Below, piece after piece: positions 18,164 to 40,962 of a stretch of DNA of 64,000 nucleotides. Both the position numbers and the translations under genes were made by a program. The notes under the pieces are model-generated. The model saw only the letters and a program-made list of their open reading frames with translations. It was not told the origin of the DNA and did no database searches. How positions within the stretch are numbered: position 1 is the stretch's first letter; the number at the start of each line of letters is the position of its first letter. Origin of the DNA: Candidatus Multivoradales bacterium (lineage in GTDB: Bacteria; Acidobacteriota; Thermoanaerobaculia; Multivoradales; J023); the NCBI GenBank assembly GCA_965248925.1, contig CBDFLE010000006.1, forward strand, positions 1-64,000, written 5' to 3'.

Positions 18164-18412
18164 ATGCCCAGTTTGCAGATCCGCCATCTTCCCGACGACA
18201 TCTACATGGCCCTCTCCCACCGTGCCAAGCACCAAGGACGAAGCCTAGCCCAGCAGGTGATCGCCGAGCTACGGCAGATGAACGAGTTGGTCCGGCGCAG
18301 CCAACGCCTGGAGGTGATCGAGCAACTTCGCGAGGAGATCCGAACTAACCCTGCTCCTCGGCCTCTCGCCCCACCTCCCGAGGAGCTGCTGCGTCAGGGC
18401 CGCGATCGATGA
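18164..18412 (+). CDS. FitA/VapB-like ribbon-helix-helix antitoxin
   Basis: MPSLQIRHLPDDIY..L..RA...GRSL; AGGAGG RBS; ATGA overlap with the PIN gene. Confidence 0.88.
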   Translation: MPSLQIRHLPDDIYMALSHRAKHQGRSLAQQVIAELRQMNELVRRSQRLEVIEQLREEIRTNPAPRPLAPPPEELLRQGRDR

Positions 18413-18658
18413 GGCCGCAGGCGGTGCTCGACGCTTCGGCCGCGCTGCACGCAGTGCTAACCCAAGAACATGCCAGCGAAGTCCTGGACTTCCTGCACGG
18501 AACCGCCTTGGTGCTAGTGCCCGCTCTATTTACCAGCGAAGTGACTAACGGGCTGTGGAAATACGTTCGCAGCGGCCAGATCACCCGCCACCGTGCTATC
18601 CAACTACTCGATCAGGCACTGAAGCTAGCCGATTCGGTGGTCGACGACCGCGACCTCG
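18239..18658 (+). repeat. 420-bp direct repeat, left copy
   Basis: Matches 40373-40792 with 4 substitutions found by eye. Confidence 0.95.
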
Positions 18659-18985: not shown

Positions 18986-20134
18986 ATGAATGAAGCAAGT
19001 GAGCGATTGAGACTCTTCGGCTCTCTAAAGGATCTGCCCAGAAACGACCGCCAGCGAATCGGCCAAGATCTAGAGAAAGTTCGCTACGCAGCAGGAGATG
19101 AAATCTTCGCCGATCAATCGGCCGGAGAAGACATGTTCTTCATCCTCGAAGGCCAAGTGCTCCTGAGCAAGCGAGGACAAGTCTTGTTGACACGCGGCCC
19201 GGGAGAGTTCATCGGCGAAATGGCACTAATCGACGACACTCCACGGAGCACCGCAGCGGTAGCCGAATCAGATGCCTTGCTCCTTCGATGGAAGCGTAGC
19301 TCCTTCCGCGAGTGCCTCGAAGAAAATGGGCGGATCGCGTACTCAATTCTCCGAGCCTTGAGCACTAAAATGCGCCAAGAGATCGAGAAAACGACTCTCT
19401 TCAAACAGGACTTGGAGCGCGCCGTCCAAATACAGAGGGCCTTACTGCCGAAAACCAGCCTACAGGGCTCCACGGCAAAAGTCGCTATATCCTGTCAGCA
19501 AGCCGATGGTGTCGGCGGCGACTACTACGACTACGTCGACTTCGACTGCGGCGAGACTGCGTTGCTCATCGCCGATGCCCAAGGGCACGGCTTTGCCGCG
19601 GCTCTTCTGGTCGCTATGCTGAAAACCCGCTTCTCGAGCACGATCATCCATCAACGCGCTCCCGCAGAGGTCGTACGGGCCCTCAACCAGACCATTTCGG
19701 ACGACATTCAGACCGAAGTCCGCACTGCAACCTGCTTCCTCTTGCTTTTGGACGGCCCTCGAAGACTCTTCCGGTATTGCGGAGCCGGCCACCCCACTCA
19801 GTATCACCTACGGCCGAGCTCAGGATGCCTGACACGGCTGATCTCACAGAATCTCCTACTCGGATTCACCGGCCAGCAAGACAGATTCTCTGAGAGCACG
19901 GCAATCGAGTGGAAAGCGGGCGATCTCTTGCTACTCTGTACCGACGGTGTCGTCGAGATGAAGAATGAAGCGAAGCAAGAGTTCGGCCATCACCGCCTGA
20001 CTGAATTCATCGTCAACCACGGGCACCTCGATATCGAAGAAATCACCAAGCACCTACAAGAACAGCTCGATCTGTTTCGAGGAAACCGCGCCATCGCAGA
20101 CGACGTGACGTATCTCGTCGTGCGACTCCTCTAG
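18986..20134 (+). CDS. cNMP-binding domain plus SpoIIE/PP2C (RsbU-like) phosphatase
   Basis: FIGEMALIDDTPRST; VGGDYYD, IADAQGHG, TDGVVE, DDVT. Confidence 0.92.
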   Translation: MNEASERLRLFGSLKDLPRNDRQRIGQDLEKVRYAAGDEIFADQSAGEDMFFILEGQVLLSKRGQVLLTRGPGEFIGEMALIDDTPRSTAAVAESDALLLRWKRSSFRECLEENGRIAYSILRALSTKMRQEIEKTTLFKQDLERAVQIQRALLPKTSLQGSTAKVAISCQQADGVGGDYYDYVDFDCGETALLIADAQGHGFAAALLVAMLKTRFSSTIIHQRAPAEVVRALNQTISDDIQTEVRTATCFLLLLDGPRRLFRYCGAGHPTQYHLRPSSGCLTRLISQNLLLGFTGQQDRFSESTAIEWKAGDLLLLCTDGVVEMKNEAKQEFGHHRLTEFIVNHGHLDIEEITKHLQEQLDLFRGNRAIADDVTYLVVRLL

Positions 20135-20718: not shown

Positions 20719-22314
20719 GTGAGCACACGCGACCAGGAGCAGGCCGCAAGGGGAGCTAAGGAATCAGGCGCCTGGCCTATCCACCATTTACCCTCGGCCG
20801 CCGAGCGCAAAGTGCTCCGCGTCCTCTGGGGCCATCAGGGCAAAAACCTAGTTCGGATCGATATCCACAACAAGATCCCCGTCCTTCACCAGAGAACTCT
20901 CGGTCGCACCGGACAGATTCTGCGTAGCCTCTACGAAGAGGGACTAATAGACCGTGTTACCGGCCGCGCCCAGGGCAGTCGGCAAGCCGGCTTCTACGCC
21001 CTCTCCGAGCACGGGCTACAGTTCTGCAGAATCATGGGTTTCGAGCACAAGAAACGGGCACTCTTTCCGACATCGAGAGAGTTTCGTGAGCACTGGCTAA
21101 CGCCCAAGCACCTTTCAAGGCACCTCGATGCCCATGGCCAAATTGTGGCGGTCTACGGCTACATTCCTGGCCTAGGAAGATCGACTTTGATCGCCCACAT
21201 CGCCAAAGCAATGACAAGAGACTCCGGAACGAGAGAACAATTTCTGGTGGCCGACCTCGACTTCGAGTCGCCCGGACTCGACGATTTCTTTACCTCACAG
21301 GAAGCGCAGCACTGTCGTGGCCTTGGCGGCCTGCGAGTAGACTTCGAACTAAGACTTCCTCACAAGAGGGCACTCTGGCTTCGAGCCGCCTTGAGCGACT
21401 CTAAGTATGTAATTCGACCAACTGAGCCAGATGTTCCAGGATTACTCTACCTGCCGAGCGGGCTCAGTTCCAGGCAAACCGCCCTCTCCCCTACGGACCG
21501 AGGTGAAGCGCTGAGGCTGCTGCAGCAAGAGGCCGAATCATCTCCTAGAAATACCCCTAATCAACAGGCCTCGGAAGGGATGACTTTCCTGTCCGAGCTG
21601 CGAAAGGCACTCTCTGAGAAGTTCACCAAAGTCCTCATCGATTCGCAGTTTGGTCGTAGTCTCGGATCCTGGATTGCCACACAGCCTCTGCCCGATGAGC
21701 TTGTCGTCTGCGCCGAAGAGGCAGACAAGACCGAGACAACGATCGCTGGACTACAAGCAGTGCTCGCCAACTTCCTCAACCACCGAAATTATCACGGAGA
21801 ACCCGCAGGAGTATATTTCCTCTTCCGGCTCAAGGCCCCGACGAGCCCTGTTGATCTGAAAGAGTGGATCGATCGAAACCTGACCGTAGGAGATTCCGGC
21901 CACCGCCCTCGTCTCAAGTCTCCACCCTACCGGGTGGAGCAGCTGCCCTACGACTTGCGCTTGGCGAAAGATCGCCGGCACTGGGAGCACTCTCACTTCT
22001 ACCGACGAGTCATTCGCTTGCTGGGTCTGACTCCCGACACCGAGCCCTTTGAGGCTCCACCCCCAGAACTCCGCATCCTCTTGGACGTTCTCGATCCTAC
22101 AAGGAAGCAGTATGAAAGGACTCTCGCCGCCGGACTTCTGGAGAACGCTCCTCTGGCCGAACTTGCCAGGTGGATAGACTGGCATCATGCCAGAGGATCT
22201 CTGCCGGTAGAATCCGATACATTGGGAAGAAAGTTGCTGCAAGAAATCCTTGAGGTAAAAATGTTCTCAAGAATCATCAGTGCTTCTACTAATAGAACCA
22301 CGTCTAAAGAATAG
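20719..22314 (+). CDS. Winged-HTH fused to a ParA/MinD-like ATPase with degenerate Walker A
   Basis: N-terminal wHTH (ERKVLRVL...LYEEGLIDR...FYALSEHG); VYGYIPGLGRST, DLDFESPGL, LPSG, VLIDSQFG. Confidence 0.7.
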   Translation: MSTRDQEQAARGAKESGAWPIHHLPSAAERKVLRVLWGHQGKNLVRIDIHNKIPVLHQRTLGRTGQILRSLYEEGLIDRVTGRAQGSRQAGFYALSEHGLQFCRIMGFEHKKRALFPTSREFREHWLTPKHLSRHLDAHGQIVAVYGYIPGLGRSTLIAHIAKAMTRDSGTREQFLVADLDFESPGLDDFFTSQEAQHCRGLGGLRVDFELRLPHKRALWLRAALSDSKYVIRPTEPDVPGLLYLPSGLSSRQTALSPTDRGEALRLLQQEAESSPRNTPNQQASEGMTFLSELRKALSEKFTKVLIDSQFGRSLGSWIATQPLPDELVVCAEEADKTETTIAGLQAVLANFLNHRNYHGEPAGVYFLFRLKAPTSPVDLKEWIDRNLTVGDSGHRPRLKSPPYRVEQLPYDLRLAKDRRHWEHSHFYRRVIRLLGLTPDTEPFEAPPPELRILLDVLDPTRKQYERTLAAGLLENAPLAELARWIDWHHARGSLPVESDTLGRKLLQEILEVKMFSRIISASTNRTTSKE

Positions 22315-22333: not shown

Positions 22334-24940
22334 ATGGAACAATATATTTCCATGGATATCTCCAAACTCGACACTGAGGCGGCAGATCTCGTTGCCGCAA
22401 TCGCCTGTCAGTTCGACAGTACTCAAGATTCCATAAAGCAACTCAGAGTTCTGGCGAGCGCACTAGCCCACCAACCTCAGGTCACTGGAGCCCTGGTTGC
22501 TGCCTGCGAAGAAGGCGGCCCCACTCTCAGCGGCACCCGAAACTTCTCGATCGCTGGTACAATCTGTCCTCTCGATATTCTTGAGAAGGTCACGGGAAGC
22601 CTTCCCGACACTGGAAACTGGACAGACCTGGACCATACCGGAATAGAAGTGCCCGGAGCCTATTCGGTCTTAGGGCGCAAAATCATCGCAGAAGGCGAGA
22701 TGGTGGCTCTAGCACTGGTCGGCTTGGCAGACTCTGCCGGCGTGAATCCTCTCAAGAACCAACCCGAGTGGATTTGGCAGTATCTTGGGCGGACGGCTCA
22801 GAGCGCTCTCAACCGTCACGAGAAGCTCTACTTCGAACAACTGCGCAAGTTAGAGCTTCGCGCTCTAACACAACTTGAGGCCAGCCTCTCCGGCAACCTC
22901 GAAGCGCAGAGACTCCAACTGCGAAGAATTGCTAGAGATCTCAAAGAAATCTTCGCCTCCGCGGCCGTCACTATTCTCATCCGCGAGCAAGGCAAACTGT
23001 ACTTATCAGCAACGACCGACGTGAAGCTCGCCAAGTGCGAGGTCACCTATGATCCAGGACTGGGACTTACCGGCCACATCCTTGAGACTGGATGTGCGAT
23101 CAATCTCCGCAACGCAAGGGATCTCGGTGAAATGCGCCAGTGGCTTCCGGACGACCTGGTGCAGCAGAGAGGACCGGCTAGCTACTATCCAGAGACTCTC
23201 GCAGAGGCCAACGGTGACCCGTTTCGCTTTCTAGCCGTCCCAATGCGGTCGGACCATGAGATCAGAGGAGTCATCCGGATACTCCGCGAAGAGCAAGACT
23301 TCCCATATTCCCCATCCGAACAGAAGGCACTTCAACACTTTGCAGATTTCTTGGCGACTACTCTGCACGCTGCGTGGAAGCTCTTCCTTTCCAATTCGAT
23401 TATTGAAGCAGAGACTGAAGCAATTTGCGTTACCCGGCAAGAGCCCGGCAAGGGGCATGAAGCAGAAACCATCCCCAGGGTCGTTTACGTTGAACAGGGA
23501 GCAGAACGTCTCTTGGGTCTCAAGCGCGACCAGCTTGAGAACATGGATGGGCGTGAGCTTTACGCCGACGATGACTACGAGAGAGTACGCTTCTGTCTGG
23601 AACAGGCCATTCGCGAGGGAAAAAGAGTCTACGGCCCAATAAAGATCAAGACAAATCGCTTCGGAGACTCCGGAACAGACCTCCGATTCTCTGAAATTTC
23701 CTATCGCATGCTCACCAGCCCATTTGTGATACCCGAAACCCACTACACCATTGCGGTAATTCGAGACATTACGGAAGACGAGTTCCAGGCCGAACAGCAT
23801 CGTCGACTCATGGCTCTTCTCGATAAAAAGGGTTTGGCATACTTCCGAGCTGATGAGAACGGCAACACAATCGAGACGACGGCCACAGAGAGTAAGCTTA
23901 CCGGATACTCACTAAACGAGTTAAGGAACCTTTCACGAAAACACCTCTTTTACAATCCGCCGGACCGTCACCATCTTATCGGTACTGTCGACGAGCGTGA
24001 AGGAGAACTCGTCTTTACTAACCAACAGCTCAAACGCAAGGACGGCAGTCCCTTCTGGGTAGAGGGTCACATGCACAAGCTAAAGGACGTCGAAGACCGC
24101 AAGATCGGTTACGAAGGACTGTACGAAGATGTCACGGACCGAATGATGCTCCAGGAGTTACTCGACACCGGCGCAGACACAATTCTTAAGAAACGTGACC
24201 TGTATCAACAACTAAAGGAGAACACGAGGTTTCAATCCCTGTTCATGGCAAGTATGTGCCATCAACTCCGCTCCCCACTCGGTGCTCTCCTGGGCCAACT
24301 TCAGAATTTCGAAGAGGGCATCACTGACACGCTACGATTTTCGAAACGCCTACACTACGCTATCGGACAGGTGAAGATCTGTAGTCTTCTAGTTGCGAAC
24401 TTCACTTACATGGACAAGCTTCTGCGTGGTGAGCGATTCAAATTCAGACGCCTCAATCTCACTAAGTTAGTTATCGAAACAAGGATCGATTTTGAACATT
24501 TGGCCCATGAGCGCAAATTGAAGATCACGGTTGACTCCGAGAGTTGCGATCGTTATTTCCCGGCCGTCCATGGCCACAAAGAGTTGATTCGCCAGGTTCT
24601 TGTTAACTTGATCGACAACGCTATCAAGTATTCCAATCCTCACTCTACAATAAGGCTCGTAAGTAAAGAGATGCCCGGACGGATCTATCTGGAAATTGCT
24701 AGTCATGGTCTGCTTGTGCCCAAGGAGGACCGCAAGAAGATTTTCAATCGTGGCGTCCGCATCAAGGCAGCAGAAAATCTAGTACCTGAGGGAACTGGCT
24801 TGGGACTGTGGCTCGTCAAAAAAATTGTGAAGGCTCACGGCGGAGAGGTCCGTTGCACTGAGATTTCCCTGAAGGACAAGGCGCACATGGCTTTTCAGAT
24901 CAGTCTACCGGGCCGACAGCAAATCGGCAGGAGGAATTAG
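22334..24940 (+). CDS. GAF-PAS-PAS sensor histidine kinase (no TM segment evident)
   Basis: GLTGHI...FLAVPM..GVIR GAF; RKDGSPFWV PAS; HQLRSPL, NLIDNAIKYS, GTGLGL. Confidence 0.92.
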   Translation: MEQYISMDISKLDTEAADLVAAIACQFDSTQDSIKQLRVLASALAHQPQVTGALVAACEEGGPTLSGTRNFSIAGTICPLDILEKVTGSLPDTGNWTDLDHTGIEVPGAYSVLGRKIIAEGEMVALALVGLADSAGVNPLKNQPEWIWQYLGRTAQSALNRHEKLYFEQLRKLELRALTQLEASLSGNLEAQRLQLRRIARDLKEIFASAAVTILIREQGKLYLSATTDVKLAKCEVTYDPGLGLTGHILETGCAINLRNARDLGEMRQWLPDDLVQQRGPASYYPETLAEANGDPFRFLAVPMRSDHEIRGVIRILREEQDFPYSPSEQKALQHFADFLATTLHAAWKLFLSNSIIEAETEAICVTRQEPGKGHEAETIPRVVYVEQGAERLLGLKRDQLENMDGRELYADDDYERVRFCLEQAIREGKRVYGPIKIKTNRFGDSGTDLRFSEISYRMLTSPFVIPETHYTIAVIRDITEDEFQAEQHRRLMALLDKKGLAYFRADENGNTIETTATESKLTGYSLNELRNLSRKHLFYNPPDRHHLIGTVDEREGELVFTNQQLKRKDGSPFWVEGHMHKLKDVEDRKIGYEGLYEDVTDRMMLQELLDTGADTILKKRDLYQQLKENTRFQSLFMASMCHQLRSPLGALLGQLQNFEEGITDTLRFSKRLHYAIGQVKICSLLVANFTYMDKLLRGERFKFRRLNLTKLVIETRIDFEHLAHERKLKITVDSESCDRYFPAVHGHKELIRQVLVNLIDNAIKYSNPHSTIRLVSKEMPGRIYLEIASHGLLVPKEDRKKIFNRGVRIKAAENLVPEGTGLGLWLVKKIVKAHGGEVRCTEISLKDKAHMAFQISLPGRQQIGRRN

Positions 24941-24942
24941 AG

Positions 24943-25416
24943 ATGCCCCAAGGTGGTAAAGTATTACTTGTTGACGATCGTGTCGGCGACATCCAATGGG
25001 TGATTGATTTCCTGGAGAACTTTGGACAGAGAGTTGAGCGCGTTTCAAACGAGGCGGATGCCAGGAAACGATTCGATGCTGTAGGCTCGGGCAAGGCGTC
25101 CTACGTACTTGCTATTATCGACATCATGGTTTCGCTGAAGGACATCCTCGACATCTCCGAAGTCGACGAGACCTTCTATCGAAAGTCTAGTCGTACCGGA
25201 GTTCGGCTCTGCAAATACCTACGCGAAGAACTTCGTGTCAGCGCGGACGAGTTGCCTATCATCTGTATTTCTGGCAGGCCTGACGCAGAAGGGGTCCGTA
25301 AAGAGCTCCGCAAGCTCGGTATCCCCCTCTATAACCGGGTCCCTTCCCAAAGAGAAGAGTCGCTCCGAAGCGCTCTTACCGAGTACCTGCCGGAACTCAG
25401 CCGCCGGCAACAGTAG
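24943..25416 (+). CDS. Single-domain response regulator
   Basis: VLLVDD, AIIDIM, PIICISG. Confidence 0.85.
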   Translation: MPQGGKVLLVDDRVGDIQWVIDFLENFGQRVERVSNEADARKRFDAVGSGKASYVLAIIDIMVSLKDILDISEVDETFYRKSSRTGVRLCKYLREELRVSADELPIICISGRPDAEGVRKELRKLGIPLYNRVPSQREESLRSALTEYLPELSRRQQ

Positions 25417-26783
25417 GCACAGAACAACATGCCAGATCAGAACCAACAGTCCCCAAGCATCCAAGGACTCTGCGAAAAGATGGAGTCCATCGAAATCGAA
25501 CTCATCGCACAAGACCACAGGAGTCTCAGGGTCTGGAGAAATTTCTTCAGATACATATTCTGCTCGGGGGAACCCAGACGTCGAGCCTCAGTGGAGGCAG
25601 TAGTGCGCTGGTGCTTTCTTGGAAGCAACAAGCTAGTCATCCTCGGTGGCATATTTGCAGCTGCGATAGCATTTCAAGCTAACAATCTTCTAGACGATCA
25701 GAACCTGAAACTCGACCTTCAGAATCGATTGCTCATTCTGCAAACCCATCAAGAAGAGGCGCAGCGTAGCATTGAAGCAGGAAGGCAGCTGCACCAACTC
25801 ATGCGAAAGGTAGGTAGAGGAAGATTTGACTGTGACGGTTTCACACCTGACCCCTATCTCGACACCGATCTATGTCCAAATTCTGGGTCCACTGAGTCTA
25901 AAAACGCTTACTGCATAGGCGAGAACTTGATCCAGGAACTTTCAGCTTTCTCCTCTACCGTTCAACCTTATCGCATCGTGTCAGGGGATCTGACGATTCG
26001 AACTCTCTACACCGGATCTGATGATATAGCGGCTGAGGCGCGAGGAATTCAGTACTGGCTGGGCCTCTCCAGATCAATCAATGATGATCTCGAACTACTC
26101 CCAGTTCCGCAGCTTTCGAGTTCCAGACGAAGTCCCGAGCGCGGTGAGCTAATAAGGCGACTGTTAGTTGAACAGCGGATACGAGGCGCTTTCGGCGCCA
26201 AACGAAAGGGAATGATTCTTGAGTCAGCACATCTACCGCCCGGAACTAGCCTGGATGGCGCCGATCTAACGAATGTCAAGTTGCGCAACGCCGACTTCAC
26301 AGCAATTACTCTTAACAATGCAGTCGCTGTAGACGGTGATTTTCGAGGATCTTCACTCAGATTCTCGAAGCTTAAATGCTCCACTTTTTCCAATGCCCTG
26401 TTTCAAGACGTTGACCTATACAATGCTGACCTAAGTGGATCGAATCTCATAGCAGCCCGTGGCAGAAGTCCGTTTCTACAAAATGTGGCCTAAATTGAGG
26501 CCAGCCGGCGCAGGTGGTCTGATCGAAGATCTTAGTGGCCAATATCCGCTCTCGTGCGGCAGAAGCCAGCTCAGCAAGCTACATACGGCGCGAAAGCCCT
26601 GTTCGAGAGCCGAAAGAAAGCCCTGAAGGGCCCGTGGAGTGCCGGCTCCATACATTTGACGAAGCAGCAGCCCAAGATTGAATCCCGCGATGTGAATCAG
26701 CAACCTTTTGCGGATGTTGTCGTGACCTCGAAGGTGGGTCCTTCTCATACCGCCAGTCTGTTAGCGGCTGAGCAAGAACGTAT

Positions 26784-29791: not shown

Positions 29792-29877
29792 CGTCTCCAG
29801 CTGGACAGAGGGTAGACGAGACGATGATTTCCGAAGATACTTAGCGCGAGCCGGCCTATCGGTCGCGCTTCTTGGGG

Positions 29878-29921
29878 AGGTCCAGGGGTTTCGACCGCCT
29901 AGTCAAATTGCCCCTGGACCT
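29878..29921. promoter_or_regulatory. GC-rich hairpin in the IS21 leader
   Basis: AGGTCCAGGGG...CCCCTGGACCT 11-bp perfect stem. Confidence 0.55.
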
Positions 29922-31388: not shown

Positions 31389-32933
31389 CTCTACTTTGTC
31401 AGATTCCCAGAGCCGGGAAATGTCCCGTCTCGCGCCTGTCCTTTCTGGTAAGCGGACCTAGTAGCAGCCTGTCGTCGCTGATGTCGTTGTTCCATGAGAT
31501 GTAGCACTTCATCAAGGCCAACATCCCGTCTTGGTAGGACCTTGGCCAACAAGATCTTGAGGTCAGTACAGCTGAGCAAAGGGTGGGTCGATTGATGTTT
31601 CTGGCGTTGTTGAAGGAGAAAGAGCAGGGCCATCATGACCAGCGCCATGTGGTGATGCCAAGCCTTCCAACTGCGGGCCTGGTACTCGGCCATTCCGGCC
31701 TCTCTCTTGGCGTCTTGAAAAGTGCGCTCGATCCAGTAGCGCTGACGCTGGATCTGGGCGAGCCGGCCTGCCGGGGTTTCAGCGGGTGCATTACTCAGGC
31801 TGTATTTCAGGCTCGCAGGATCGCTGGGATCGCGGGTCACCAACAGGTGCCAGCAGCGGGCCGAGGCTTCTCGGCCATCCCACAGCCAGACCATGCCTCG
31901 CATCACATCCAGGTGCAACTCGCCTTTCGTCGTATGACGAATCCACTGCCGCTTCCAAGCCGACTCCGGCCGCTGTGGCAACCAAGCATCCACTCGCATA
32001 GGTTTCATCTGGGTAACTCGTCGGCGAGAACGTCCCGACGGCGAAGTCGGAATCTCCGGCTTCGGGTCTTCGGCGTAGATGCGTTGATCGCGATGGATAT
32101 CGATGACGAAGACTTCGCCCGCATCGTCCAGGCCCTGAAGAAATGCTGGGTTGTTCCCATAACCACCATCAGCGGCAACCCAACGAAAGCGAAGGCCCTG
32201 AGCCCGCGCTCTGTGGACCATCTCAAGAGCCAATTCCGGCTTGGTTTGAAACGTTCGTGCCGATTCCGGAACACCCGCTTGACGGCAGCGCTTCGGCGAG
32301 TTGGTCCACTCGCGGGGCAGGTACAACCGGGCATCGATCAAGGACGCGCGATTGCCGTGACCGAGGCTGGCGAAAACGCCCACCTGACAGCTGTCGGTCT
32401 TGCCCCGAGTTCCGCACCATTGCCGGGCCACCCCGACAGATTTCTTCCCCTTCTTCGGGAAACTCGACTCGTCGATAACCAGGCACGAATCCAGGGTGCC
32501 GAATCCAGGGTGCCGCCCAGCTCGGCATCGACTCCCGCAGCAACCTGGTCCATAACCTTTTGACTCTCCCAGTCCGACACCGACAGGAAGTGATGCAAAG
32601 CTTGGGAATCGGAATCGGGGACAACTTCAGCCATTTGCAGCATGGTAGCGCGTCGCGCCTGCATTAGGCCGCGAAGATACTGCCCCGCCTGCGGCAGCAC
32701 ACTGCGTGTAAAGCGAGAGAAACAAAGGGCAAAGCCCTAGGCAAAATCCCACAACTCGCGCCCCAGATTTTGGTAGGAAACTGGGGCATCGCTGATCTCC
32801 GAACGACTAGGGAACTGGGGGCTCAAGCTGAGCCCTGAGTTCCTCCATGGGTTTAGTGACGGCCTTCATCGGGGCCGCCAATACAGGTTAAAGCCTTTGT
32901 CGTCACCAATTTAAGTAATCTGACAAAGTAGAA
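31389..32933 (-). mobile_element. IS701-family element
   Basis: IRs CTCTACTTTGTCAGATT / AATCTGACAAAGTAGAA; (A)CTAA TSD at 31385-31388 and 32934-32937. Confidence 0.88.
31391..32760 (-). pseudogene. IS701 transposase, frameshifted by a 14-bp duplication (32487-32514) with an upstream stop; 5' boundary approximate
   Basis: VARQWCGTRGK..CQVGV, RLYLPREW, ADGGYG, RYWIERTFQDAK, WHHHMAL. Confidence 0.85.
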
Positions 32934-33337: not shown

Positions 33338-34960
33338 TCAACCAGCGCCCGGGTTACCCCCGGCGCGAGGGCCTGCTGGTGGTAACCCAGGCTCTCGGAC
33401 TTCCTGGAGGCAGCGTTGATACCGAGCCCATGCTTCGAGATAGAATCCCATAGAGGCAGGAAGCTCACCGTTCAAGAATTCAAAGAATCTCGGAACGCAG
33501 GCCTCACAGGCCTGCAGAGCGGCATTCGCCAAGCTTGCGGTCTCCTTCAAGAAATGTAGGCGTTCCTTCTCGGAGAGACAGGACGTAGTCTTGGCTCGAA
33601 TCCGACTCTGGAGGTAAGTTGTAATGCTCTCGGGCCTCTCCCACGGCCAGAGTCGTGCGACGTTGTCTTCGCCGGTGCTAAGTATCTTGTTGCCTTCTGG
33701 ATTAAACTTGGCTGATTTCATGCTGCCTGTGCTGCCGCCGAATACTGCGACTTCTCGGGAGGTCTCGGCACTCCATACACGCAGCGTACCGTCTTCCGAA
33801 GAGGTAACTATCCACCGCCCATCTGGGCTAAACGTCGCCGAGGTGACTGCTTTCTGATGGCCCTTCAACGTTCTAAACTCTCTCGTTGCCAAGGTCCAGA
33901 CGCGAGCTGTCTGGTCCTCGGACGCAGTTACGACAAACTTCCCATCGGGACTAAACTTGGCATCTCGAATCAATCCACGATGACCGAGGAGTGTCGACTT
34001 CGGGCTTCTGGAGGTTAGTTTCCTGGGAGGATCAGCGTTCCAGAGGTATACCTTCCTACCGGAGGCGGTCAACACCGTGCGGCTAGCAGAATCTAGCGCC
34101 ATGGCCTTGATCTGATTGTGGGGACTCCGTTTCAACAGCAACCTAATCTGTCTTATATAGCTCCACCAACGCAGATTCTGATCTTGCGAAGTGGTGAGAA
34201 TTCGGTTTCTCTCGACATCAAACAGTACTCCGGTAACCGACTCACGGTGTTTGAGTCTCTTTGGTTCTGGCCTTCTTTCACCGGTGGCTCTGCCCCAAAC
34301 CAAGGCCACGGAGTCAGGCGAGATGGTCACTATCCATTTCTCATCGGAGCTGAAGACCGCTTTTGTAACGGGACCGTCATGACCACTCAACGTATCTAGC
34401 GAGCCACCCGTTTCGGCATCCCATACTTTCGCGGTGCCGTCTTGAGATGCGGTCAGCACGCGAAGACCCTCTGGGGCACTCAGACCTTTCGGGTTGAATC
34501 TCGCCGTATTCACTCGGTTCAGATGTCCCTTGAGGATGTTCTCCTGCTCCCCTGTTCGCGCGTTCCAGATTATTGCGGTTTGATCTTCAGACGCCGTCAC
34601 AATCCGCGATCCCGAGGGATCGAAGGAAGCTTCCAATATTCGCTTGGCGTGCCCGGCAAAGGCGAACAGTTCGGCACCTGCCAACGGCTCGGTTGACGCC
34701 GAGTTTCCCGACTTGTGTTCTGGACTGGCGAGGGCTCTATTCAGCACTACGAAACTGTTTGGAACGTCCGCCGGTCGACGAATCTCCAGCAGCAAGAGTC
34801 TTGCTCTCAGTCCCGGTATCTGCTCAGCGGCAACATCGAAGATTTCCTGATCCGTAATATTGATATTCTCCGTCTTGGGATCTAACATTCCACATCCGAC
34901 TAGCACGGCCACTACCAGAGCACCGAACGAATCTGTGCCTCGCCAACGCTCAGTCCGCAT
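33338..34960 (-). CDS. WD40 repeat lipoprotein
   Basis: LVGC lipobox; repeated GH...FSPDG..VTASEDQTARVW. Confidence 0.85.
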   Translation of the reverse strand: MRTERWRGTDSFGALVVAVLVGCGMLDPKTENINITDQEIFDVAAEQIPGLRARLLLLEIRRPADVPNSFVVLNRALASPEHKSGNSASTEPLAGAELFAFAGHAKRILEASFDPSGSRIVTASEDQTAIIWNARTGEQENILKGHLNRVNTARFNPKGLSAPEGLRVLTASQDGTAKVWDAETGGSLDTLSGHDGPVTKAVFSSDEKWIVTISPDSVALVWGRATGERRPEPKRLKHRESVTGVLFDVERNRILTTSQDQNLRWWSYIRQIRLLLKRSPHNQIKAMALDSASRTVLTASGRKVYLWNADPPRKLTSRSPKSTLLGHRGLIRDAKFSPDGKFVVTASEDQTARVWTLATREFRTLKGHQKAVTSATFSPDGRWIVTSSEDGTLRVWSAETSREVAVFGGSTGSMKSAKFNPEGNKILSTGEDNVARLWPWERPESITTYLQSRIRAKTTSCLSEKERLHFLKETASLANAALQACEACVPRFFEFLNGELPASMGFYLEAWARYQRCLQEVREPGLPPAGPRAGGNPGAG

Positions 34961-34965
34961 ACCTG

Positions 34966-37900
34966 CTACTCAACGAGATGAATGTCCTCACCCGCCAAGC
35001 TCCCACTGTCGGTACGAAATCGAACTTCCCAAAGGCGGCCCTGACCGACATCCTCTGAAATCTCCATCCATGAGTAAATTTGTTCGGTCTCGTGAAACGT
35101 ATTGTCATAGTCCTTCTTCACTTGGTCGGTCACGCATACTCCACCCTCACGAGCTATCTCCATCACTCGGCTAGCAGTGTGGACTACCAGCCCGTGTGCA
35201 TCATCTCTGTCAACCTGCACCTCGCCGACGTGAACTCCTACTCGCACTGTGATCTTCTCGTGACCTGTTCGGCCTTCAAGCTCAACAGCGAACTTGAGCG
35301 CTTCTATCGAGCTACGAAAGGCTATCATGCGGCCGTCGCCAGTCGACTTCACAACAAAACCGCCATGCCTCTCGGCGAGAGTATCGGTCTTGTCGAAGTG
35401 TTGATTCCGCACTATCGCCCAGGCAGCGGCCTTTATTTCGTTTAGGAGATGAGTGCTTCGGACTACGTCAGTGAAGACGATCGCTAGCTGGACGTACTCG
35501 GAACTCGAGCCGCCTAACCATCCCCAGAGCCCATCGCGTCGCTCATCGCTCCCCGCCTGTTGCCTAAACAGGATCCTGGTCCTTAAATAGGTGCCGGACA
35601 GCAGCGCTGCAAGTAACAGAATCACGTACAATACCGGCCGGTCGAAAGGAAATCGCAGTACTCTCCGGTCTGCGAAACTCCAGCGGTGCGCCGGCAGTTG
35701 GGTCTTGTAGACCACGAAGTCAAGGCGGCGCGACAACTCGGCCTGTTCTTTCCGAGGATCCCAGACGAACCTACCTCGCTGCCCAGCGGCCAGCTCGAGG
35801 AAGGCGTCGGTCGTGAATGGGCCGTAGTAGTCCGGGGACCGGATCGCAACATGGTCTGCGCTGAAACTGTCGTCACCGATACTGATCAGGTCGACTGTCA
35901 GTCGATTTCCTACGAGGGACAGTCGGGCGCTCTGCCAATCGACTTTAGGAACGCGGTTTATGACCTGAATTGGGTCCAGGAACAGGTGTTTGCCGCCACC
36001 ACTCGTCACGACCAGGTCCAAGGCTGCCTCTTGTGTTGTCGGATACTCGTAGGAGCTTTGAAGCGAAACCTCGCCACGTAGCTCAGCTGTTTCTCCTGGC
36101 TCGATAACGACCTGTACGGGCGGCGGATGGAAGACCACCGGAGTGTTGACCGCCGATTTGACTTGGTTAACCTTCACCCAGATTGCTCGTTGCGGGCCTG
36201 GGTTTCTGAGCGTGAGTGTCAACGGCGCCAACTCACCGTCCGTGAGTCGGACTTGATCCGGTAGTCGTTTAGCAAGCTGCAGGTCAGGCGCGGACTCTGC
36301 GCGTTGCAAGGGCATCGACTCGAATACGCCGGAGTTGCTCTGGCGCAACAAGAGAGTGCCGTCATCATAGCGGTAGCAGCGCCCTTTGCGTCGGCAGTCG
36401 ATCCACTGACCTCGATCGCCGCCGAGGAGAACGCTGGAAAGCGTGCACCTTGCCACTTTACAAGGTGACCAGATCCTCACCACACCCTCGCCAATACCGA
36501 CGGTGGCCAACGCATCGCCAGCCTTCCCAAAAGCCGCAGCACTCAGCCCGTTGCGGTCGATACGGCCAGCCAGCGAGGCGTGCTGCTGACCAATCACCCA
36601 GACGAAAACCTCGCCGCCGCGCAGCACAACGCCGACTCTCGTCGGCGAGATGAAATGCACGGCCAACGCATCGCCAGCTAACCGCCTGCTACCGCTGGAC
36701 AGAAGATCCTTGGACTCAAGGTCCCAAAGATACAAGCCGCCGCCACCGAAAGCGCCGACTAGCCGCCTACCGTCGGAGCTGAAAGCCAAGGCCTGGACTC
36801 TCTGCTGGGGCATATCGTTGTCTCTCGAACTCGTCTGAGCGAAGCGACCGTAGAGTTCGCGCGTGGACAGGTCAAGAACTTGGACCATGCCGTCGTCGAA
36901 ACCCGCCGCCAGGAGACCGCCATCGGGAGAGAAAGCGAGCGCCGCTACCGCGGATGTCTGCGCCGGAAGCGGCGCTTGCCTATCAAAGCGTCGTGCACCG
37001 TCGGCCGCCCGTCGCCACCAAGTGATAGGCCCATCCTGGAAACCGGCGGCCAGCGTGTCGCCCATAGCACTGAGCGCGAGGCAGCGAGGCGCCTTCCCTC
37101 CAGAGAGTGGAAACGTCCAAGGGCCGTGAGCCGGCTTGCTGTTGCGGTCCCAAAGCCGGATCGCTCCTCTGGAGCCTGCCACCAGACTCTGCCCGCCGTT
37201 GCCGAACGCCAGCGCCTTGACTAGCGGCACACCTCCTCCGAGTCGGCGCACCAGCTGGCTGGATGAGAAGGACCAGATTCCTACGAAACCCTCGCGTGTC
37301 CCCGCCGCAAGGAGTCTGCCGGAAGGACTGGGGCTGAGTGCGAAGACCTCGTCGCCGAAGTTCTCCAGCTGCGCCACCTCAGTGCCGGCAACGTAGCTCC
37401 AGAGCCGCACGCTACCGTCGCGCGAGGCAGAAGCAACCATATGGCCGTCCGGATGCCACACCACAGCCGTAGCAGCTAAGCGATGGCCTTCGAAAAGGCG
37501 CACCATTTTGCCGGTGTCGACCTCCCAGACCCGAACAGTGCTGTCGGCGGACGCCGAAGCCAAGAACTCTCCCTTCGGCCCCCAACTGACCGCATTCACA
37601 CGCTCATCGTGAGCGCCCTTAATCGTTGGTCCAAGAGGTTTGCCGTCGGCAGCATTCCAGAGCTTGATCGTGCGGTCCCACGATCCGGTGGCCAGAGCAT
37701 GGCCGTTAGGATGCCAGGCAAGCGCGGCAATCCTCTCGCCGTGTGCAGACCAAGCCGGCAGCTTGGCGGCACCAGTCCGCGGATCTAAGATCGTGACTGT
37801 GCCGTCTTTGGAACCGATCGCCAACAGGTCAGCGCGAGGGCTAAAGGCCACCGTCCAACCACTCCAGCGACGCGGTTGCCGGTCCGCTTTAAGGTCCCAG

Positions 37901-38301
37901 AGCCGTACCGTGCCATCGTCAGAGCTACTGGCTAACCAGCGACCATCAAAACTGAAAGAGAGGGTCTCTACGGGGCCTGAATCGTCTTCTAGCCGAAAGC
38001 TCTCTAGACCCGTTTCTAGGTCCCACAATGCGACGACACCAGCCGCCCCTCCGGTCGCCACCTCTCTGCCGTTTGGATGCCAGGCGAGCGCGTAGAGTGC
38101 CTCTCTTGATTTGACGCCGGAGAGCAGTTCTGCAGTTTCTTCAATCGACTCAGCGAACTTCTCACCGCCGAGAACCAGTGGCAGTAGGTCTTGGGTCGGC
38201 TGCGCGGCAGCCGGCCCAGGCGTTGAGTAGACTGTTAAGAAAGCGCATGTAACCAGAGTTCCCCAGCTCGACCAAGCCCGGCACGACAAAGCGTGAAGCA
38301 T
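34966..38301 (-). CDS. Receptor-type class III nucleotide (likely adenylate) cyclase with extracellular WD40 propellers
   Basis: Signal-like N-terminus, many WD40 repeats, TM VLYVILLLAALLSG, then VFTDVVRST, VVKSTGDG, RVGVHVGEV, DAHG..VHTASR. Confidence 0.88.
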   Translation of the reverse strand: MLHALSCRAWSSWGTLVTCAFLTVYSTPGPAAAQPTQDLLPLVLGGEKFAESIEETAELLSGVKSREALYALAWHPNGREVATGGAAGVVALWDLETGLESFRLEDDSGPVETLSFSFDGRWLASSSDDGTVRLWDLKADRQPRRWSGWTVAFSPRADLLAIGSKDGTVTILDPRTGAAKLPAWSAHGERIAALAWHPNGHALATGSWDRTIKLWNAADGKPLGPTIKGAHDERVNAVSWGPKGEFLASASADSTVRVWEVDTGKMVRLFEGHRLAATAVVWHPDGHMVASASRDGSVRLWSYVAGTEVAQLENFGDEVFALSPSPSGRLLAAGTREGFVGIWSFSSSQLVRRLGGGVPLVKALAFGNGGQSLVAGSRGAIRLWDRNSKPAHGPWTFPLSGGKAPRCLALSAMGDTLAAGFQDGPITWWRRAADGARRFDRQAPLPAQTSAVAALAFSPDGGLLAAGFDDGMVQVLDLSTRELYGRFAQTSSRDNDMPQQRVQALAFSSDGRRLVGAFGGGGLYLWDLESKDLLSSGSRRLAGDALAVHFISPTRVGVVLRGGEVFVWVIGQQHASLAGRIDRNGLSAAAFGKAGDALATVGIGEGVVRIWSPCKVARCTLSSVLLGGDRGQWIDCRRKGRCYRYDDGTLLLRQSNSGVFESMPLQRAESAPDLQLAKRLPDQVRLTDGELAPLTLTLRNPGPQRAIWVKVNQVKSAVNTPVVFHPPPVQVVIEPGETAELRGEVSLQSSYEYPTTQEAALDLVVTSGGGKHLFLDPIQVINRVPKVDWQSARLSLVGNRLTVDLISIGDDSFSADHVAIRSPDYYGPFTTDAFLELAAGQRGRFVWDPRKEQAELSRRLDFVVYKTQLPAHRWSFADRRVLRFPFDRPVLYVILLLAALLSGTYLRTRILFRQQAGSDERRDGLWGWLGGSSSEYVQLAIVFTDVVRSTHLLNEIKAAAWAIVRNQHFDKTDTLAERHGGFVVKSTGDGRMIAFRSSIEALKFAVELEGRTGHEKITVRVGVHVGEVQVDRDDAHGLVVHTASRVMEIAREGGVCVTDQVKKDYDNTFHETEQIYSWMEISEDVGQGRLWEVRFRTDSGSLAGEDIHLVE

Positions 38302-38434
38302 AGCTGCTAGAGACGAAGGCACAGGTTTTAGGCGAGAAGAAGACCCATCGTGAAACTTCGCCAAGCTAGACCCGGAGGACACGCTAACCGGACGCGACCT
38401 CGATCTTCTCCTCCATCGTGGACGAGGCAAGCTA

Positions 38435-39727
38435 TCAACGGGCCGCCGCTGTCAGGCAATCAATCGGCGGCCGCCCTTGTTCCAACGGCGAAGATTCCGG
38501 CTCGCTGATCCAATTCTCAGGAATCGTTGTTGCAGCCAGTAGTCGGTGCTTCTTGGCTCTTGGCAACCAGGAGTCGAGTTCGAGTGCTAGCCAGAAGGCC
38601 TCTCCTGACAGGACATACAAGTGGCGTGTCGCGCGCTGCGTCGGAAGTCGTACCTCACCTAGCACTTGGACGATGCCTTTGTTGAAATCCGGCTCCAACT
38701 TGACAACCCTCCAAGTCGTTACTCCAGGCCTCCGGCCCTCCGGCCCGCGGAGCAGAGCATAGAGGAACTCTCCAACGGAATAGAGTCCGACCGGGATTTT
38801 CATCCCCTCGACGCTCTTGTACATCTCGGCAACAGTGCCAGCTGGCGGATAAGGCATAGACTCGTTGGAGCCAGGAAACCCCTCTAGTCGGCCGCGCGAG
38901 CCGTCCCTCGTGTCGTAGTAATGCAGACTAGGGGAGGTGCTCATCTCCAAAAAGTACACCAAGTCGCCTGCGACAGCGATGAACTCGTGATGGAATGCGT
39001 AGTGTCGGTACCCAGGTACATCCCAGATCATCTGAGCCTTCGGCGTGACGTTGGCATTCCCTGGCGTCTGGACTTGGGTTAGGTAGAAACCTTCTCGAAC
39101 GACGTCAAGACGTCCGTCAATCCCTAGCGCGCCGTAGGCGAAGAACTGATCGGCCACTGGCTGCCAATCAAACATCGACATCACCCGATTGTCCTCGATC
39201 AGCTCTCCCGTCATTCCAACGCGGCTCACCAACTCTGTTCGACCCCGCTTGAGGAGACTTGCGTCGAACCACTGGATGGAGCTGGGAATACCGTTTCCAA
39301 GATTCAGATTTAGACCAACGAAGCCGCCATTGCTGCGCTTGATGCCGTAGACGATTTCACGGACCGGCTCATCGCCGACAGCGGTCAGCGACTCCTTTGG
39401 GTAGTAGTCGCCAGCGCGACTAGCCGACAAGCTCTGCTCGACCGTGACGGAGCCGCTTACGATATCGCGGCTCAACGCCAACTCAAGACTCTTCCGATCA
39501 AACATACTCACGAGCAACGCCCGCGATTGCTCGACATCGCCCCAGGTAGCGAAGTTGAACTTGGAAGCTTGCCAATCCGAGTTGACCGACTCGCGCCAAC
39601 AGCCTTCCGCCCGAGAACCGCCCGCGATCAATCCTCCTATCAAAGCGAGCAACAGGGAGAGGCCGAGACCTCCGGGGTACCAACGGTCGATACCCGAATT
39701 GAGCTGAACATTCGTTCGAGTAGTCAT
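38435..39727 (-). CDS. Secreted hypothetical protein, beta-rich (possible propeller)
   Basis: 430-aa ORF with signal LGLSLLLALIGGL; GAGGG RBS; operonic spacing. Confidence 0.7.
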   Translation of the reverse strand: MTTRTNVQLNSGIDRWYPGGLGLSLLLALIGGLIAGGSRAEGCWRESVNSDWQASKFNFATWGDVEQSRALLVSMFDRKSLELALSRDIVSGSVTVEQSLSASRAGDYYPKESLTAVGDEPVREIVYGIKRSNGGFVGLNLNLGNGIPSSIQWFDASLLKRGRTELVSRVGMTGELIEDNRVMSMFDWQPVADQFFAYGALGIDGRLDVVREGFYLTQVQTPGNANVTPKAQMIWDVPGYRHYAFHHEFIAVAGDLVYFLEMSTSPSLHYYDTRDGSRGRLEGFPGSNESMPYPPAGTVAEMYKSVEGMKIPVGLYSVGEFLYALLRGPEGRRPGVTTWRVVKLEPDFNKGIVQVLGEVRLPTQRATRHLYVLSGEAFWLALELDSWLPRAKKHRLLAATTIPENWISEPESSPLEQGRPPIDCLTAAAR

Positions 39728-39746
39728 GGTCTGGCCGCCCTCTGAA

Positions 39747-39941
39747 TCAGTTAACATTTTCTTCATTGCGGCAAACACCATTAGCGCTCATGCAAGGAAC
39801 GCCGGTTCCCAGGACCAAACCTGTGGCTCCGCGGCATTGACTGCCGAGAGTGCCCTCGCTGGCCTGGGTCGACATCGGCGCCACCTGCACTAGCCCGACG
39901 ATCAAAACGAGCAACAATAATCTAACGCAGACTCTGCTCAT
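39747..39941 (-). CDS. Small secreted Cys-containing peptide (64 aa)
   Basis: GAGGAG RBS; signal MSRVCVRLLLLVLIVGLV...TQA; mature part with 3 Cys. Confidence 0.6.
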   Translation of the reverse strand: MSRVCVRLLLLVLIVGLVQVAPMSTQASEGTLGSQCRGATGLVLGTGVPCMSANGVCRNEENVN

Positions 39942-40372: not shown

Positions 40373-40792
40373 CGAAGCCTGGCCCAGCAGGTGATCGCCG
40401 AGCTACGGCAGATGAACGAGTTGGTCCGGCGCAGCCAACGCCTGGAGGTGATCGAGCAACTTCGCGAGGAGATCCGAACTAACCCTGCTCCTCGGCCTCT
40501 CGCCCCACCTCCCGAGGAGCTGCTGCGTCAGGGCCGCGATCGATGAGGCCGCAGGCGGTGCTCGACGCTTCGGCCGCGCTGCACGCAGTGCTAACCCAAG
40601 AACATGCCAGCGAAGTCCTGGACTTCCTGCACGGAACCGCCTTGGTGCTAGTGCCCGCTCTATTTACCAGCGAAGTGACCAACGGGCTGTGGAAATACGT
40701 TCGCAGCGGCCAGATCACCCGCCACCGTGCTATCCAACTACTCGACCAGGCACTGAAGCTAGTCGATTCGGTGGTCGACGACCGCGACCTCG
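40373..40792 (+). repeat. 420-bp direct repeat, right copy (antitoxin 3' part plus vapC 5' part)
   Basis: Matches 18239-18658. Confidence 0.95.
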
Positions 40793-40962
40793 CCCGCGAA
40801 GCCTTGGTCCTAGCGGCCGCGCACTCACACCCGGCTTACGATGCCCTCTATGCCGTGCTGGCACGTCGCAACGGCTGCCCTTTGCTAACGTTCGACCGGC
40901 GCCTGGTCAAGTTGCTGGGGAAGCTCGGTGTTGAGGCTTGGGTTCCAGCCTCCAGCACTTGA
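40543..40962 (+). CDS. vapC: VapC PIN-domain toxin, intact
   Basis: VLDASA, EVTNGL, AYDALYAVLA, LLTFDRRL. Confidence 0.93.
   Translation: MRPQAVLDASAALHAVLTQEHASEVLDFLHGTALVLVPALFTSEVTNGLWKYVRSGQITRHRAIQLLDQALKLVDSVVDDRDLAREALVLAAAHSHPAYDALYAVLARRNGCPLLTFDRRLVKLLGKLGVEAWVPASST

Follow-up and report, generated by a model that had tools for sequence, protein, structure and literature searches.

A putative receptor-type adenylate cyclase with periplasmic tandem WD40 propellers, encoded with a Cys-loop peptide, a six-bladed propeller and a WD40 lipoprotein in a Multivoradales bacterium

A cluster of four genes was analysed in a 64,000-nucleotide (nt) stretch of Candidatus Multivoradales bacterium (assembly GCA_965248925.1, contig CBDFLE010000006.1), referred to below as the window. 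Four successive frames were found on the minus strand at 39941-39747 (64 amino acids, aa), 39781-38435 (448 aa), 38430-34966 (1154 aa) and 34960-33338 (540 aa). All four frames (33338-39941) were co-oriented, open and full length. They are predicted to encode a secreted peptide, a secreted propeller, a receptor adenylate cyclase and a lipoprotein, respectively. The features of the cluster are given below, with receptor residues numbered along the 1154-aa frame unless the database record P0013 is named.

39747..39941, minus strand: 64-aa precursor of a predicted secreted Cys-loop peptide (open reading frame (ORF), ribosome-binding site, orthologous ORFs)
38435..39727, minus strand: predicted secreted six-bladed beta-propeller of an unnamed family, 430 aa from M19, ORF open to 39781 (AlphaFold2 (AF2) fold)
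34966..38301, minus strand: predicted receptor adenylate cyclase, 1111 aa from M44, ORF open to 38430 (Pfam, AF2, database record)
38203..38301, minus strand: receptor signal peptide, residues 44-76, predicted cleavage between AAA and QP (by eye, orthologue recurrence)
36466..38097, minus strand: tandem WD40 region of about 14 blades (two seven-bladed propellers), predicted to be extracytoplasmic (PF00400, AF2, Foldseek)
35692..36444, minus strand: juxtamembrane beta-sandwich stalk with C679-x5-C685 (AF2, Cys invariance)
35572..35637, minus strand: single transmembrane (TM) helix, residues 932-953 (hydropathy, AF2 helix 889-910 of P0013)
35104..35499, minus strand: class III nucleotidyl cyclase domain with D988, K1028, D1032, D1077, H1084 and R1088 (PF00211, Ma1120 alignment)
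33338..34960, minus strand: WD40 lipoprotein with lipobox LVG-C23 and a Cys-rich C-terminal tail (PF00400, lipobox)

The gaps between the genes were 19 nt, 4 or 133 nt (set by the cyclase start chosen) and 5 nt, and the sequence GAGGAG stood 9 nt 5' of the ATG of the peptide gene. Translation of the propeller most likely starts at the third Met, M19 (ATG at 39727), which lies 19 nt past the peptide stop with GAGGG ahead of it. The receptor probably starts at M44 (38301), as in P0013 (1111 aa). Export signals were called by eye and by hydropathy (19-residue Kyte-Doolittle window). The first-pass annotation had described four closely spaced, co-oriented genes that all carry export signals, and this description held, with intact ORFs and a signal recognised in each by these means. 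Four sequencing runs of one study contained the stretch, and no RNA runs were among them. A tblastn search located the propeller, the cyclase receptor and the lipoprotein in the same order and on the same strand in two related genomes, G010 and G004. With the peptide ORF, the complete four-gene order recurs in both, so that the proposed peptide-propeller-cyclase-lipoprotein neighbourhood is conserved. Because gene order is kept in these genomes, the association of the four genes is more than chance.

The receptor matched PF00400 (WD40) with 221.7 bits. The AF2 model of P0013 had a mean pLDDT (the model's per-residue confidence) of 61.7 and was good in the propellers only. Strands of about 14 blades occupied residues 69-612 (pLDDT mostly 70-90), followed by beta-sandwich domains at 620-870 with lower confidence, a helix at 889-910 and an alpha/beta C-terminal domain. 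Foldseek aligned about 600 columns of the model to tandem seven-bladed WD40 proteins (2ymu, 1nr0 and Gemin5). No Pfam family was matched by receptor residues 640-939 at E<=1, Y_Y_Y (PF07495) included, and C679-x5-C685 in this stalk was invariant in the receptor alignment. The stalk is a family-specific region of the WD40 receptors described here.

The signal of the receptor consists of the core WGTLVTCAFLTVY followed by the predicted cleavage between AAA and QP. By eye and hydropathy it has a weaker hydrophobic region (h-region), which recurs in both orthologues, and the pattern W..W.L.TCA..L...AAAQP was found again in the orthologous receptor frames L016 and L018. Strongly hydrophobic N-terminal segments were present in the homologous receptors L019 and L020. 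The TM helix of the receptor is strong and is followed by the Arg-rich RTRILFR. We infer that the WD40 propellers lie outside the cytoplasm. They would be across the membrane from the output, because the ATP- or GTP-using domains of the homologues, which follow the TM helix, must be cytoplasmic. The conserved h-region, the single strong TM helix and the placement of those domains all support the earlier reading of external WD40 propellers with one membrane crossing, as do the Cys pair kept in the stalk and the Cys residues conserved in the peptide and propeller.

As for the catalytic domain, PF00211 was matched over residues 978-1109 with 45.1 bits against a cut-off of 21.9. The closest solved relative was Ma1120 (4wp8, E 1.3e-15), along whose alignment the catalytic positions were counted. 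Both metal Asp residues are present, D988 in FTD and D1032 in GDG. The adenine-specifying pair K1028 and D1077 corresponds to K101 and D157 of Ma1120, respectively. The transition-state pair is incomplete, with R1088 present and H1084 at the Asn site. All six key residues were kept in the four cyclase-bearing orthologues (4/4), at 51-58% overall identity, and the retained metal Asp and Lys/Asp residues and the Asn-to-His change reported from the window alone were borne out. Ma1120 is an adenylate cyclase with specificity residues K101 and D157 and transition-state Arg R168; it carries A164 at the usual Asn site, and the A164N change drastically lowered activity (PMC4215837). Since Ma1120 has Ala at this site and is active, His there would be no bar to activity, and H1084 appears to be no argument for an inactive enzyme; activity of the receptor itself is predicted. 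TIGR04510, the 'peptide modification system cyclase' of NCBIfam, was matched with 19.2 bits against a cut-off of 400 and was set aside as a shared-domain match only. Another protein, P0018 (1010 aa), combines WD40 repeats at its N-terminus with a Ras/Roc-type GTPase region and, at its C-terminus, a cyclase that is 36% identical to the one described here; it has no TM segment, and from its sequence it is taken to be a cytosolic relative within the same cyclase subfamily.

The lipoprotein matched PF00400 with 198.7 bits. Its orthologues come directly after the cyclase gene in L016 and L018, and a lipobox was recognised by eye in all three proteins, as LVGC (window), LTGC (L016) and LISC (L018); the lipobox consensus is [LVI][ASTVI][GAS]C. 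The WD40 lipoprotein was found only beside the cyclase-type receptor, in three genomes.

About 28 residues at the start of the 64-aa ORF form a classic signal peptide, made up of MSRVCVR, an L/V-rich core (Kyte-Doolittle 2.46) and a predicted cleavage between TQA and SE, called by eye and hydropathy. The mature part of about 36 aa contains C36, C50 and C57, and C50-x6-C57 forms a loop found family-wide. Orthologous ORFs of 65 and 71 aa, built alike, lie upstream of the propeller genes in G010 and G004, and the alignment of the window, L016 and L018 peptides had 19 invariant columns that include all three mature Cys. Propeller-family genes were then scanned with a crude peptide filter (basic N-terminus, hydrophobic core, at least 2 Cys, same strand, end within 600 nt). 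A peptide ORF was found at 13 of the 21 genes examined, and relaxing the filter contributed 2 more from 24 rows, in which some genes are represented twice. C-x6-C was present within the last 25 aa of all candidate peptides (15/15), and residues between the Cys were highly variable across genomes. The crude filter applied to 1589 long ORFs of the window's own genome as a control gave 68 matches, 2 of which had C-x6-C, and one of these two was the peptide of a propeller paralogue in the same genome. Given C-x6-C in 15/15 candidates against 2/1589 control ORFs, the small ORF is, as far as sequence can tell, a real and conserved gene family named in no library. The conservation of the 64-aa ORF, on which the earlier proposal depended, is supported by this motif and by the orthologues in the two related genomes. 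Neither Pfam nor NCBIfam held a family for the 64-aa peptide, and NCBIfam was empty for 9 of 10 candidate peptides, the tenth having two noise-level matches (0.078 and 0.4) far below the cut-offs. A Pfam match of the 64-aa peptide to Defensin_3 (16.5 bits, below the cut-off of 18) was treated as noise.

The propeller has a predicted export signal, with hydrophobic residues 34-57 followed by SRA and EGC on either side of the cleavage point (by eye and hydropathy). Its conserved Cys residues are one at the mature N-terminus right after the predicted cleavage (AE-x-C) and C442. No family was assigned to it by Pfam (E<=0.01, DUF4221 PF13970 included) or NCBIfam, and 10 of 10 sampled distant members of the propeller family had no Pfam family either. 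The AF2 model was all-beta and six-bladed (pLDDT 75.4, predicted TM-score (pTM) 0.77). Its top fold match was 3s9j, a DUF4221 protein (Z 16.3, 301 aligned residues, root-mean-square deviation 4.7), followed by Kelch and NHL propellers (Z 15.4-15.2), with a sialidase also near, within 1-2 Z units. Foldseek with the same model gave generic propellers only (TM-score 0.25-0.55). DUF4221, TolB_like and DUF5128 were the nearest named clusters by language-model features (0.88-0.89), which are leads only. No PDB sequence matched the family profile at E<=10, and neither a catalytic motif nor a cofactor site was recognised in the propeller. A methylamine-dehydrogenase-like model (a small Cys-rich subunit with a propeller) and a quinohemoprotein amine dehydrogenase model were rejected for the peptide and propeller; by eye, the peptides lack Trp and no maturation genes lie nearby.

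A word-indexed search over 5.8 billion clusters gave nine close homologues of the propeller, itself included. With a profile built from 11 sequences, the cluster representatives matched numbered 741 at E<=1e-3, 467 at 1e-10 and 28 at 1e-30. At phylum level the profile matched 10 of 301 sampled genomes, all of one class. Metagenome contig scans with this profile and with P0015 gave no confirmed locus. Complex prediction for the mature peptide and the mature propeller gave a score of 0.02 and a mark of 0.32, and was counted neither for nor against an interaction.

Beyond the orthologous clusters, the receptor stalk (640-939) was detected in 6 of the 24 family genomes. In each case (6/6) a propeller gene lay upstream of the stalk gene at a distance of no more than about 3 kb, either next to it or with one gene between, the intervening gene being HEAT-NACHT in genome G008 and a 456-aa gene in G022. 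A Cys-loop peptide ORF was located upstream at 5 of the 6 stalk-bearing loci, and at the G022 locus neither filter detected one. The G008 locus (L020 115-8489) comprises a peptide, a propeller, the HEAT-NACHT protein and a 1322-aa homologous WD40 receptor. This receptor has an N-terminal hydrophobic segment and a TM helix followed by GAF and GGDEF domains (PF00990, 5.8e-37), and judged by these domains the locus is a cyclic di-GMP version of the WD40 receptor with a gene of the STAND (signal transduction ATPase with numerous domains) type inserted. The G022 locus (L034 1953-9106) comprises a distant propeller gene, the 456-aa gene and a 1413-aa receptor with the same stalk. The G022 receptor has a signal peptide and a TM helix at 856-885, behind which about 530 cytoplasmic residues include a P-loop (GTRKIGKS). 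In G002 the homologous receptor stops just past the TM helix, without an output. Homologous WD40 receptors thus bear GAF-GGDEF, a P-loop region or nothing in place of the cyclase.

The peptide and propeller pair, from its distribution over these loci, is a portable module. A paralogous triad is encoded in the same genome as the window at G000:C6:1304149-1308272 (L003 8149-12272). Its members are an ORF of 72 aa with a signal peptide and 6 mature Cys, a propeller of 427 aa (30% identical) and a secreted 905-aa protein in which CarboxypepD_reg occurs in four stretches. On its upstream side the triad has a divergent membrane histidine kinase together with an OmpR-like regulator.

The cluster is located in an island together with further genes that are syntenic with it in the related genomes. 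The features of the island are as follows.

18239..18658, plus strand: left copy of a 420-nt direct repeat, with vapB and the 5' part of a PIN gene (truncated)
18986..20134, plus strand: cyclic nucleotide monophosphate (cNMP)-binding and SpoIIE/PP2C phosphatase, 382 aa, candidate cyclic AMP (cAMP) effector (PF00027 8.3e-18, PF07228 2.5e-42)
20719..22314, plus strand: 531-aa protein, syntenic, upstream of the kinase (no Pfam family; orthologues in L021, L023 and L028)
22334..24940, plus strand: soluble GAF-PAS-HisKA-HATPase histidine kinase (Pfam; no hydrophobic segment)
24943..25416, plus strand: 157-aa receiver-like protein (receiver features by eye only; no Pfam match at E<=0.001)
25429..26493, plus strand: pentapeptide-repeat protein with one hydrophobic segment, far end of an inverted block (Pfam)
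27122-28258 and 27873-29693: IstB and Mu-transposase-C protein, respectively, of an IS21-like element
30036-31178: DUF772/DDE_Tnp_1 transposase, at the junction of the inverted block
31391-32431: DDE_5 transposase, at the same junction
40373..40792, plus strand: right copy of the 420-nt direct repeat, with the 3' part of vapB and an intact PIN gene at 40543-40962

The gene for the cNMP-binding PP2C phosphatase was present at all three cyclase-type loci (window, G010 and G004) and was not found at the G005 locus, where the kinase block and a distant propeller occur without a cyclase. By eye, the phosphate-binding cassette of the phosphatase, GEMALIDDTPRSTA, keeps Glu and Arg. The earlier cAMP reading gains support from this conserved protein, which is encoded in the same island and is syntenic at the cyclase-type loci. 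In G010 and G004 a 531-aa-like gene, a GAF-PAS kinase gene and a 157-aa receiver-like gene directly precede the four genes on the same strand. The 531-aa gene precedes the GAF-PAS kinase gene at 4/4 loci. The window kinase was 44% identical over 852 aa to the product of the gene that immediately precedes the G010 cluster, and the receiver-like protein was 46% identical to its G010 counterpart. The 531-aa protein contains a P-loop-like motif, GxxGxGRS, recognised by eye, and has a weak PADLOC match to PDC-M28B (1.3e-7).

In G010 the genes run kinase, receiver, peptide, propeller, cyclase, lipoprotein and pentapeptide, the last on the opposite strand, and at L021 the lipoprotein gene is likewise followed by the pentapeptide-repeat orthologue in opposite orientation. 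In the window, kinase and receiver are followed by the pentapeptide gene and insertion sequence (IS) elements, after which come the four genes inverted. A single inversion of the peptide-to-pentapeptide block would explain the difference between the two orders. Three IS remnants (27122-32700), with transposase genes of IS21-, IS5- and IS4-like types, are located exactly at the junction of the inverted block. The 420-nt repeat is perfect over 300 nt, with 3 mismatches beyond. It encloses 21.7 kb with a GC content of 56.7%, against 63.0% and 62.3% outside, and the whole system lies inside. This arrangement suggests that the island arose by insertion, or by integration of the Campbell type, into vapBC.

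On balance, we lean towards a receptor-type adenylate cyclase whose sensor would be the tandem WD40 region in the periplasm, with three co-exported partners, a portable peptide and propeller accessory, and the cNMP-gated PP2C phosphatase as likely reader. The receptor would be exported via its N-terminal signal peptide, placing the WD40 propellers and the stalk in the periplasm, and would cross the membrane once. The Ma1120-like catalytic domain would follow about 30 residues past the TM helix. The active sites of class III cyclases form across the dimer interface, and a periplasmic event that alters the pairing of receptor chains would therefore set cAMP synthesis. The stimulus would be something outside the cytoplasm. 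The peptide (disulfide-looped, about 36 aa), the propeller and the WD40 lipoprotein may form or modulate a periplasmic sensing complex, in which peptide and propeller would be a portable accessory unit, as co-receptor or inhibitor, rather than a free pheromone. The cNMP-binding PP2C phosphatase of the same island would act as reader of the cAMP, and the soluble kinase, the receiver-like protein and the 531-aa protein may be further downstream or regulatory parts.

Several known systems resemble parts of this arrangement. Ma1120 of Mycobacterium avium (4wp8/4wp9) shares the Lys/Asp pair, the Arg and both metal Asp, and both proteins lack the canonical Asn. It differs in being a soluble catalytic domain in the solved entries with Ala at the Asn site, whereas here His occupies the site and the domain forms the end of a 1111-aa receptor. 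The hybrid two-component systems (HTCS) of Bacteroides, represented by BT4663 (4A2L/4A2M), share a signal peptide, two propellers, a juxtamembrane beta-sandwich, one TM helix and a cytoplasmic output. They consist of Reg_prop and Y_Y_Y domains with a kinase/receiver/AraC output, whereas the protein described here has WD40 (PF00400), no Y_Y_Y match and a cyclase. BT4663 is said, from work of Lowe et al. in 2012, to have two propellers. We know of no accessory peptide, propeller or lipoprotein genes of HTCS. The likeness to HTCS is best regarded as analogy and not membership. BT4663 is described as signalling by a scissor-like closing of the dimer, and LuxP-LuxQ, TorT-TorS and HptA-HptS as sensors that use a periplasmic binding protein (PMC8534201). 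These three also have a secreted partner encoded beside a membrane sensor, which here is proposed to present a ligand or to modulate. They differ in having periplasmic binding-protein folds and histidine kinase outputs, whereas here a six-bladed propeller and a small peptide are proposed to associate with the receptor.

The receptor adenylate cyclases of trypanosomatids and the natriuretic-peptide receptor guanylate cyclases combine a large ectodomain, one TM helix and a class III domain activated through dimer geometry, and the natriuretic-peptide receptors bind disulfide-looped peptides. They differ in their periplasmic-binding-protein-like ectodomain and in having no accessory operon, and are an analogy only. 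The DUF4221, TolB_like and DUF5128 propellers of Bacteroidota include the top fold match of the propeller model (3s9j), with other six-bladed propellers close behind, but have no sequence match to it, and no open-access paper on DUF4221 or DUF5128 was found. Pycsar systems also place a class III-fold cyclase and a cNMP-binding-domain protein in one mobile-looking island, with weak PADLOC domain matches to the proteins described here. Their genes are adjacent, whereas here they are not, and the present system differs further in its purine-type specificity residues, its TM receptor with a periplasmic sensor and its phosphatase effector. No paper on a WD40, class III cyclase and peptide/propeller system was found in the main texts of the open-access literature, and none of the closest analogues joins WD40 repeats, a class III cyclase and a peptide and propeller pair. 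The first-pass statement that no characterised system has this architecture stands for the exact combination and not for its parts, since double-propeller sensors of the HTCS type and sensors with periplasmic accessories are known analogues.

Certain observations weigh against the receptor cyclase interpretation. The scan of the cluster for promoter-like and terminator-like sites gave nothing above shuffled sequences. The receptor signal core is moderately hydrophobic, below 1.6 on the Kyte-Doolittle window, and AF2 confidence in the cyclase domain was low (pLDDT mostly below 50, from a 5-row alignment). The homologue P0017 (12.18-Mb contig, 54% identity) ends 20 residues past the TM helix with no cyclase; judged from the sequence it may be naturally output-less or the product of a broken gene, and signalling output would therefore be dispensable for some members. 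Six of nine downstream partners of distant propeller genes were secreted multi-CarboxypepD_reg proteins without signalling domains, the other three being one with a sub-threshold HEAT match and two without a family. A propeller orthologue in G017 (46-50% identity) had no peptide or receptor on its 13.8-kb contig, and the stalk search of that genome (86% complete) gave no match. In the window the cluster is inverted and parted from the kinase genes by IS elements. The genome holds 4 cyclase-domain and 18 cNMP-domain matches, so that one nearby pair is weak by itself and the link between cyclase and phosphatase rests on shared synteny; the three syntenic genomes are related and hence not independent.

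The first-pass annotation had cast the peptide as ligand and the propeller as its binding protein, and the fuller form of this idea is a self-made diffusible autoinducer that the propeller captures and shows to the WD40 receptor, the lipoprotein acting as co-receptor, in a quorum or paracrine cAMP system. In favour of this, the operon begins with the peptide gene, which has a good ribosome-binding site and is conserved together with the propeller, the sequence between the Cys of the peptide varies between genomes as in pheromones, and sensors with periplasmic binding proteins such as LuxP-LuxQ, TorT-TorS and HptA-HptS are known. A Sec-exported disulfide peptide of such size would remain in the periplasm of a diderm cell, and the neighbourhoods of the loci read contained no outer-membrane exporter, maturation protease or modification enzyme, which would fit a periplasmic subunit or modulator better than a diffusible ligand. 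The pair is also commoner beside the non-signalling multi-CarboxypepD_reg proteins, and the G017 propeller stands without peptide or receptor nearby. These points weaken the ligand and binding-protein roles, and we regard a diffusible signal as improbable. The same distribution, with 6/9 downstream partners of this kind and the paralogue in the window's own genome made of peptide, propeller and a 905-aa CarboxypepD_reg protein, would suit a two-subunit envelope unit, enzymatic, structural or adhesive, which the WD40 receptor as a lineage-specific anchor reports on or scaffolds. Output-less receptors exist (P0017 and L019), and the propeller family is large (741 representatives) against only 4 cyclase-bearing proteins. 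Against this stand three different nucleotide-using outputs on homologous receptors, which argue for recurrent signalling use, the conserved catalytic residues, and a propeller without catalytic motif whose fold matches are generic; an envelope unit of this kind seems unlikely.

The two remaining explanations concern the cyclase. Its domain could be a pseudo-enzyme, with His in place of Asn, in a protein that serves as a membrane-anchored WD40 scaffold; the canonical Asn is missing, the close homologue P0017 lacks the domain and the PF00211 score is modest (45.1 bits). Ma1120 is active without Asn and became less active when Asn was restored (PMC4215837), and the metal Asp, Lys, Asp and Arg are kept in 4/4 orthologues alongside a syntenic cNMP-binding protein, which makes a pseudo-enzyme quite improbable. 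A Pycsar/STAND-type anti-phage island, in which the cyclase raises an alarm, the cNMP-binding protein acts as effector and WD40, NACHT or P-loop proteins sense the invader, would account for the domain-level PADLOC matches (cyclase to PycC, 1.4e-5; cNMP domain to PycTIR, 3.3e-15), the relatives with HEAT-NACHT or P-loop output, and the low-GC island with IS elements inside a split vapBC. The PycC match spans only 62 residues, however, and the effector matches are confined to the shared cNMP domain. In the window about 15 kb separates the cyclase gene from the cNMP gene, and in the relatives no fewer than two genes do, the Lys/Asp specificity is that of adenylate cyclases, and the effector is a PP2C phosphatase and not a TIR or membrane-disrupting protein. 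The sensor is also predicted to face the periplasm, whereas known STAND and Pycsar sensors are cytoplasmic, and a role in defence is considered very improbable.

WD40 propellers are generally treated as cytoplasmic scaffolds. By word search of the available text, a systematic survey of prokaryotic WD40 proteins mentions neither cyclases, signal peptides nor the periplasm (PMC5587647). It is possible, and we put it forward tentatively, that the receptors described here form an undescribed transmembrane class, with a tandem-WD40 sensor, a coupled Sec-exported C-x6-C peptide and propeller as built-in ligand or co-receptor, outputs exchanged during evolution among cAMP synthesis, cyclic di-GMP synthesis, a P-loop NTPase and none, and, for the cAMP form, a cNMP-gated PP2C phosphatase as recipient of the signal. 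The peptide and propeller pair defines two unannotated families, and its genetic coupling makes its function directly testable; the peptides that accompany this propeller family of 741 cluster representatives have been missed by family libraries. If the receptor cyclase interpretation is true, a periplasmic WD40 sensor wired to second-messenger enzymes would be a new input domain in bacterial signalling, and the system would be a rare handle on the role of cAMP in Acidobacteriota.

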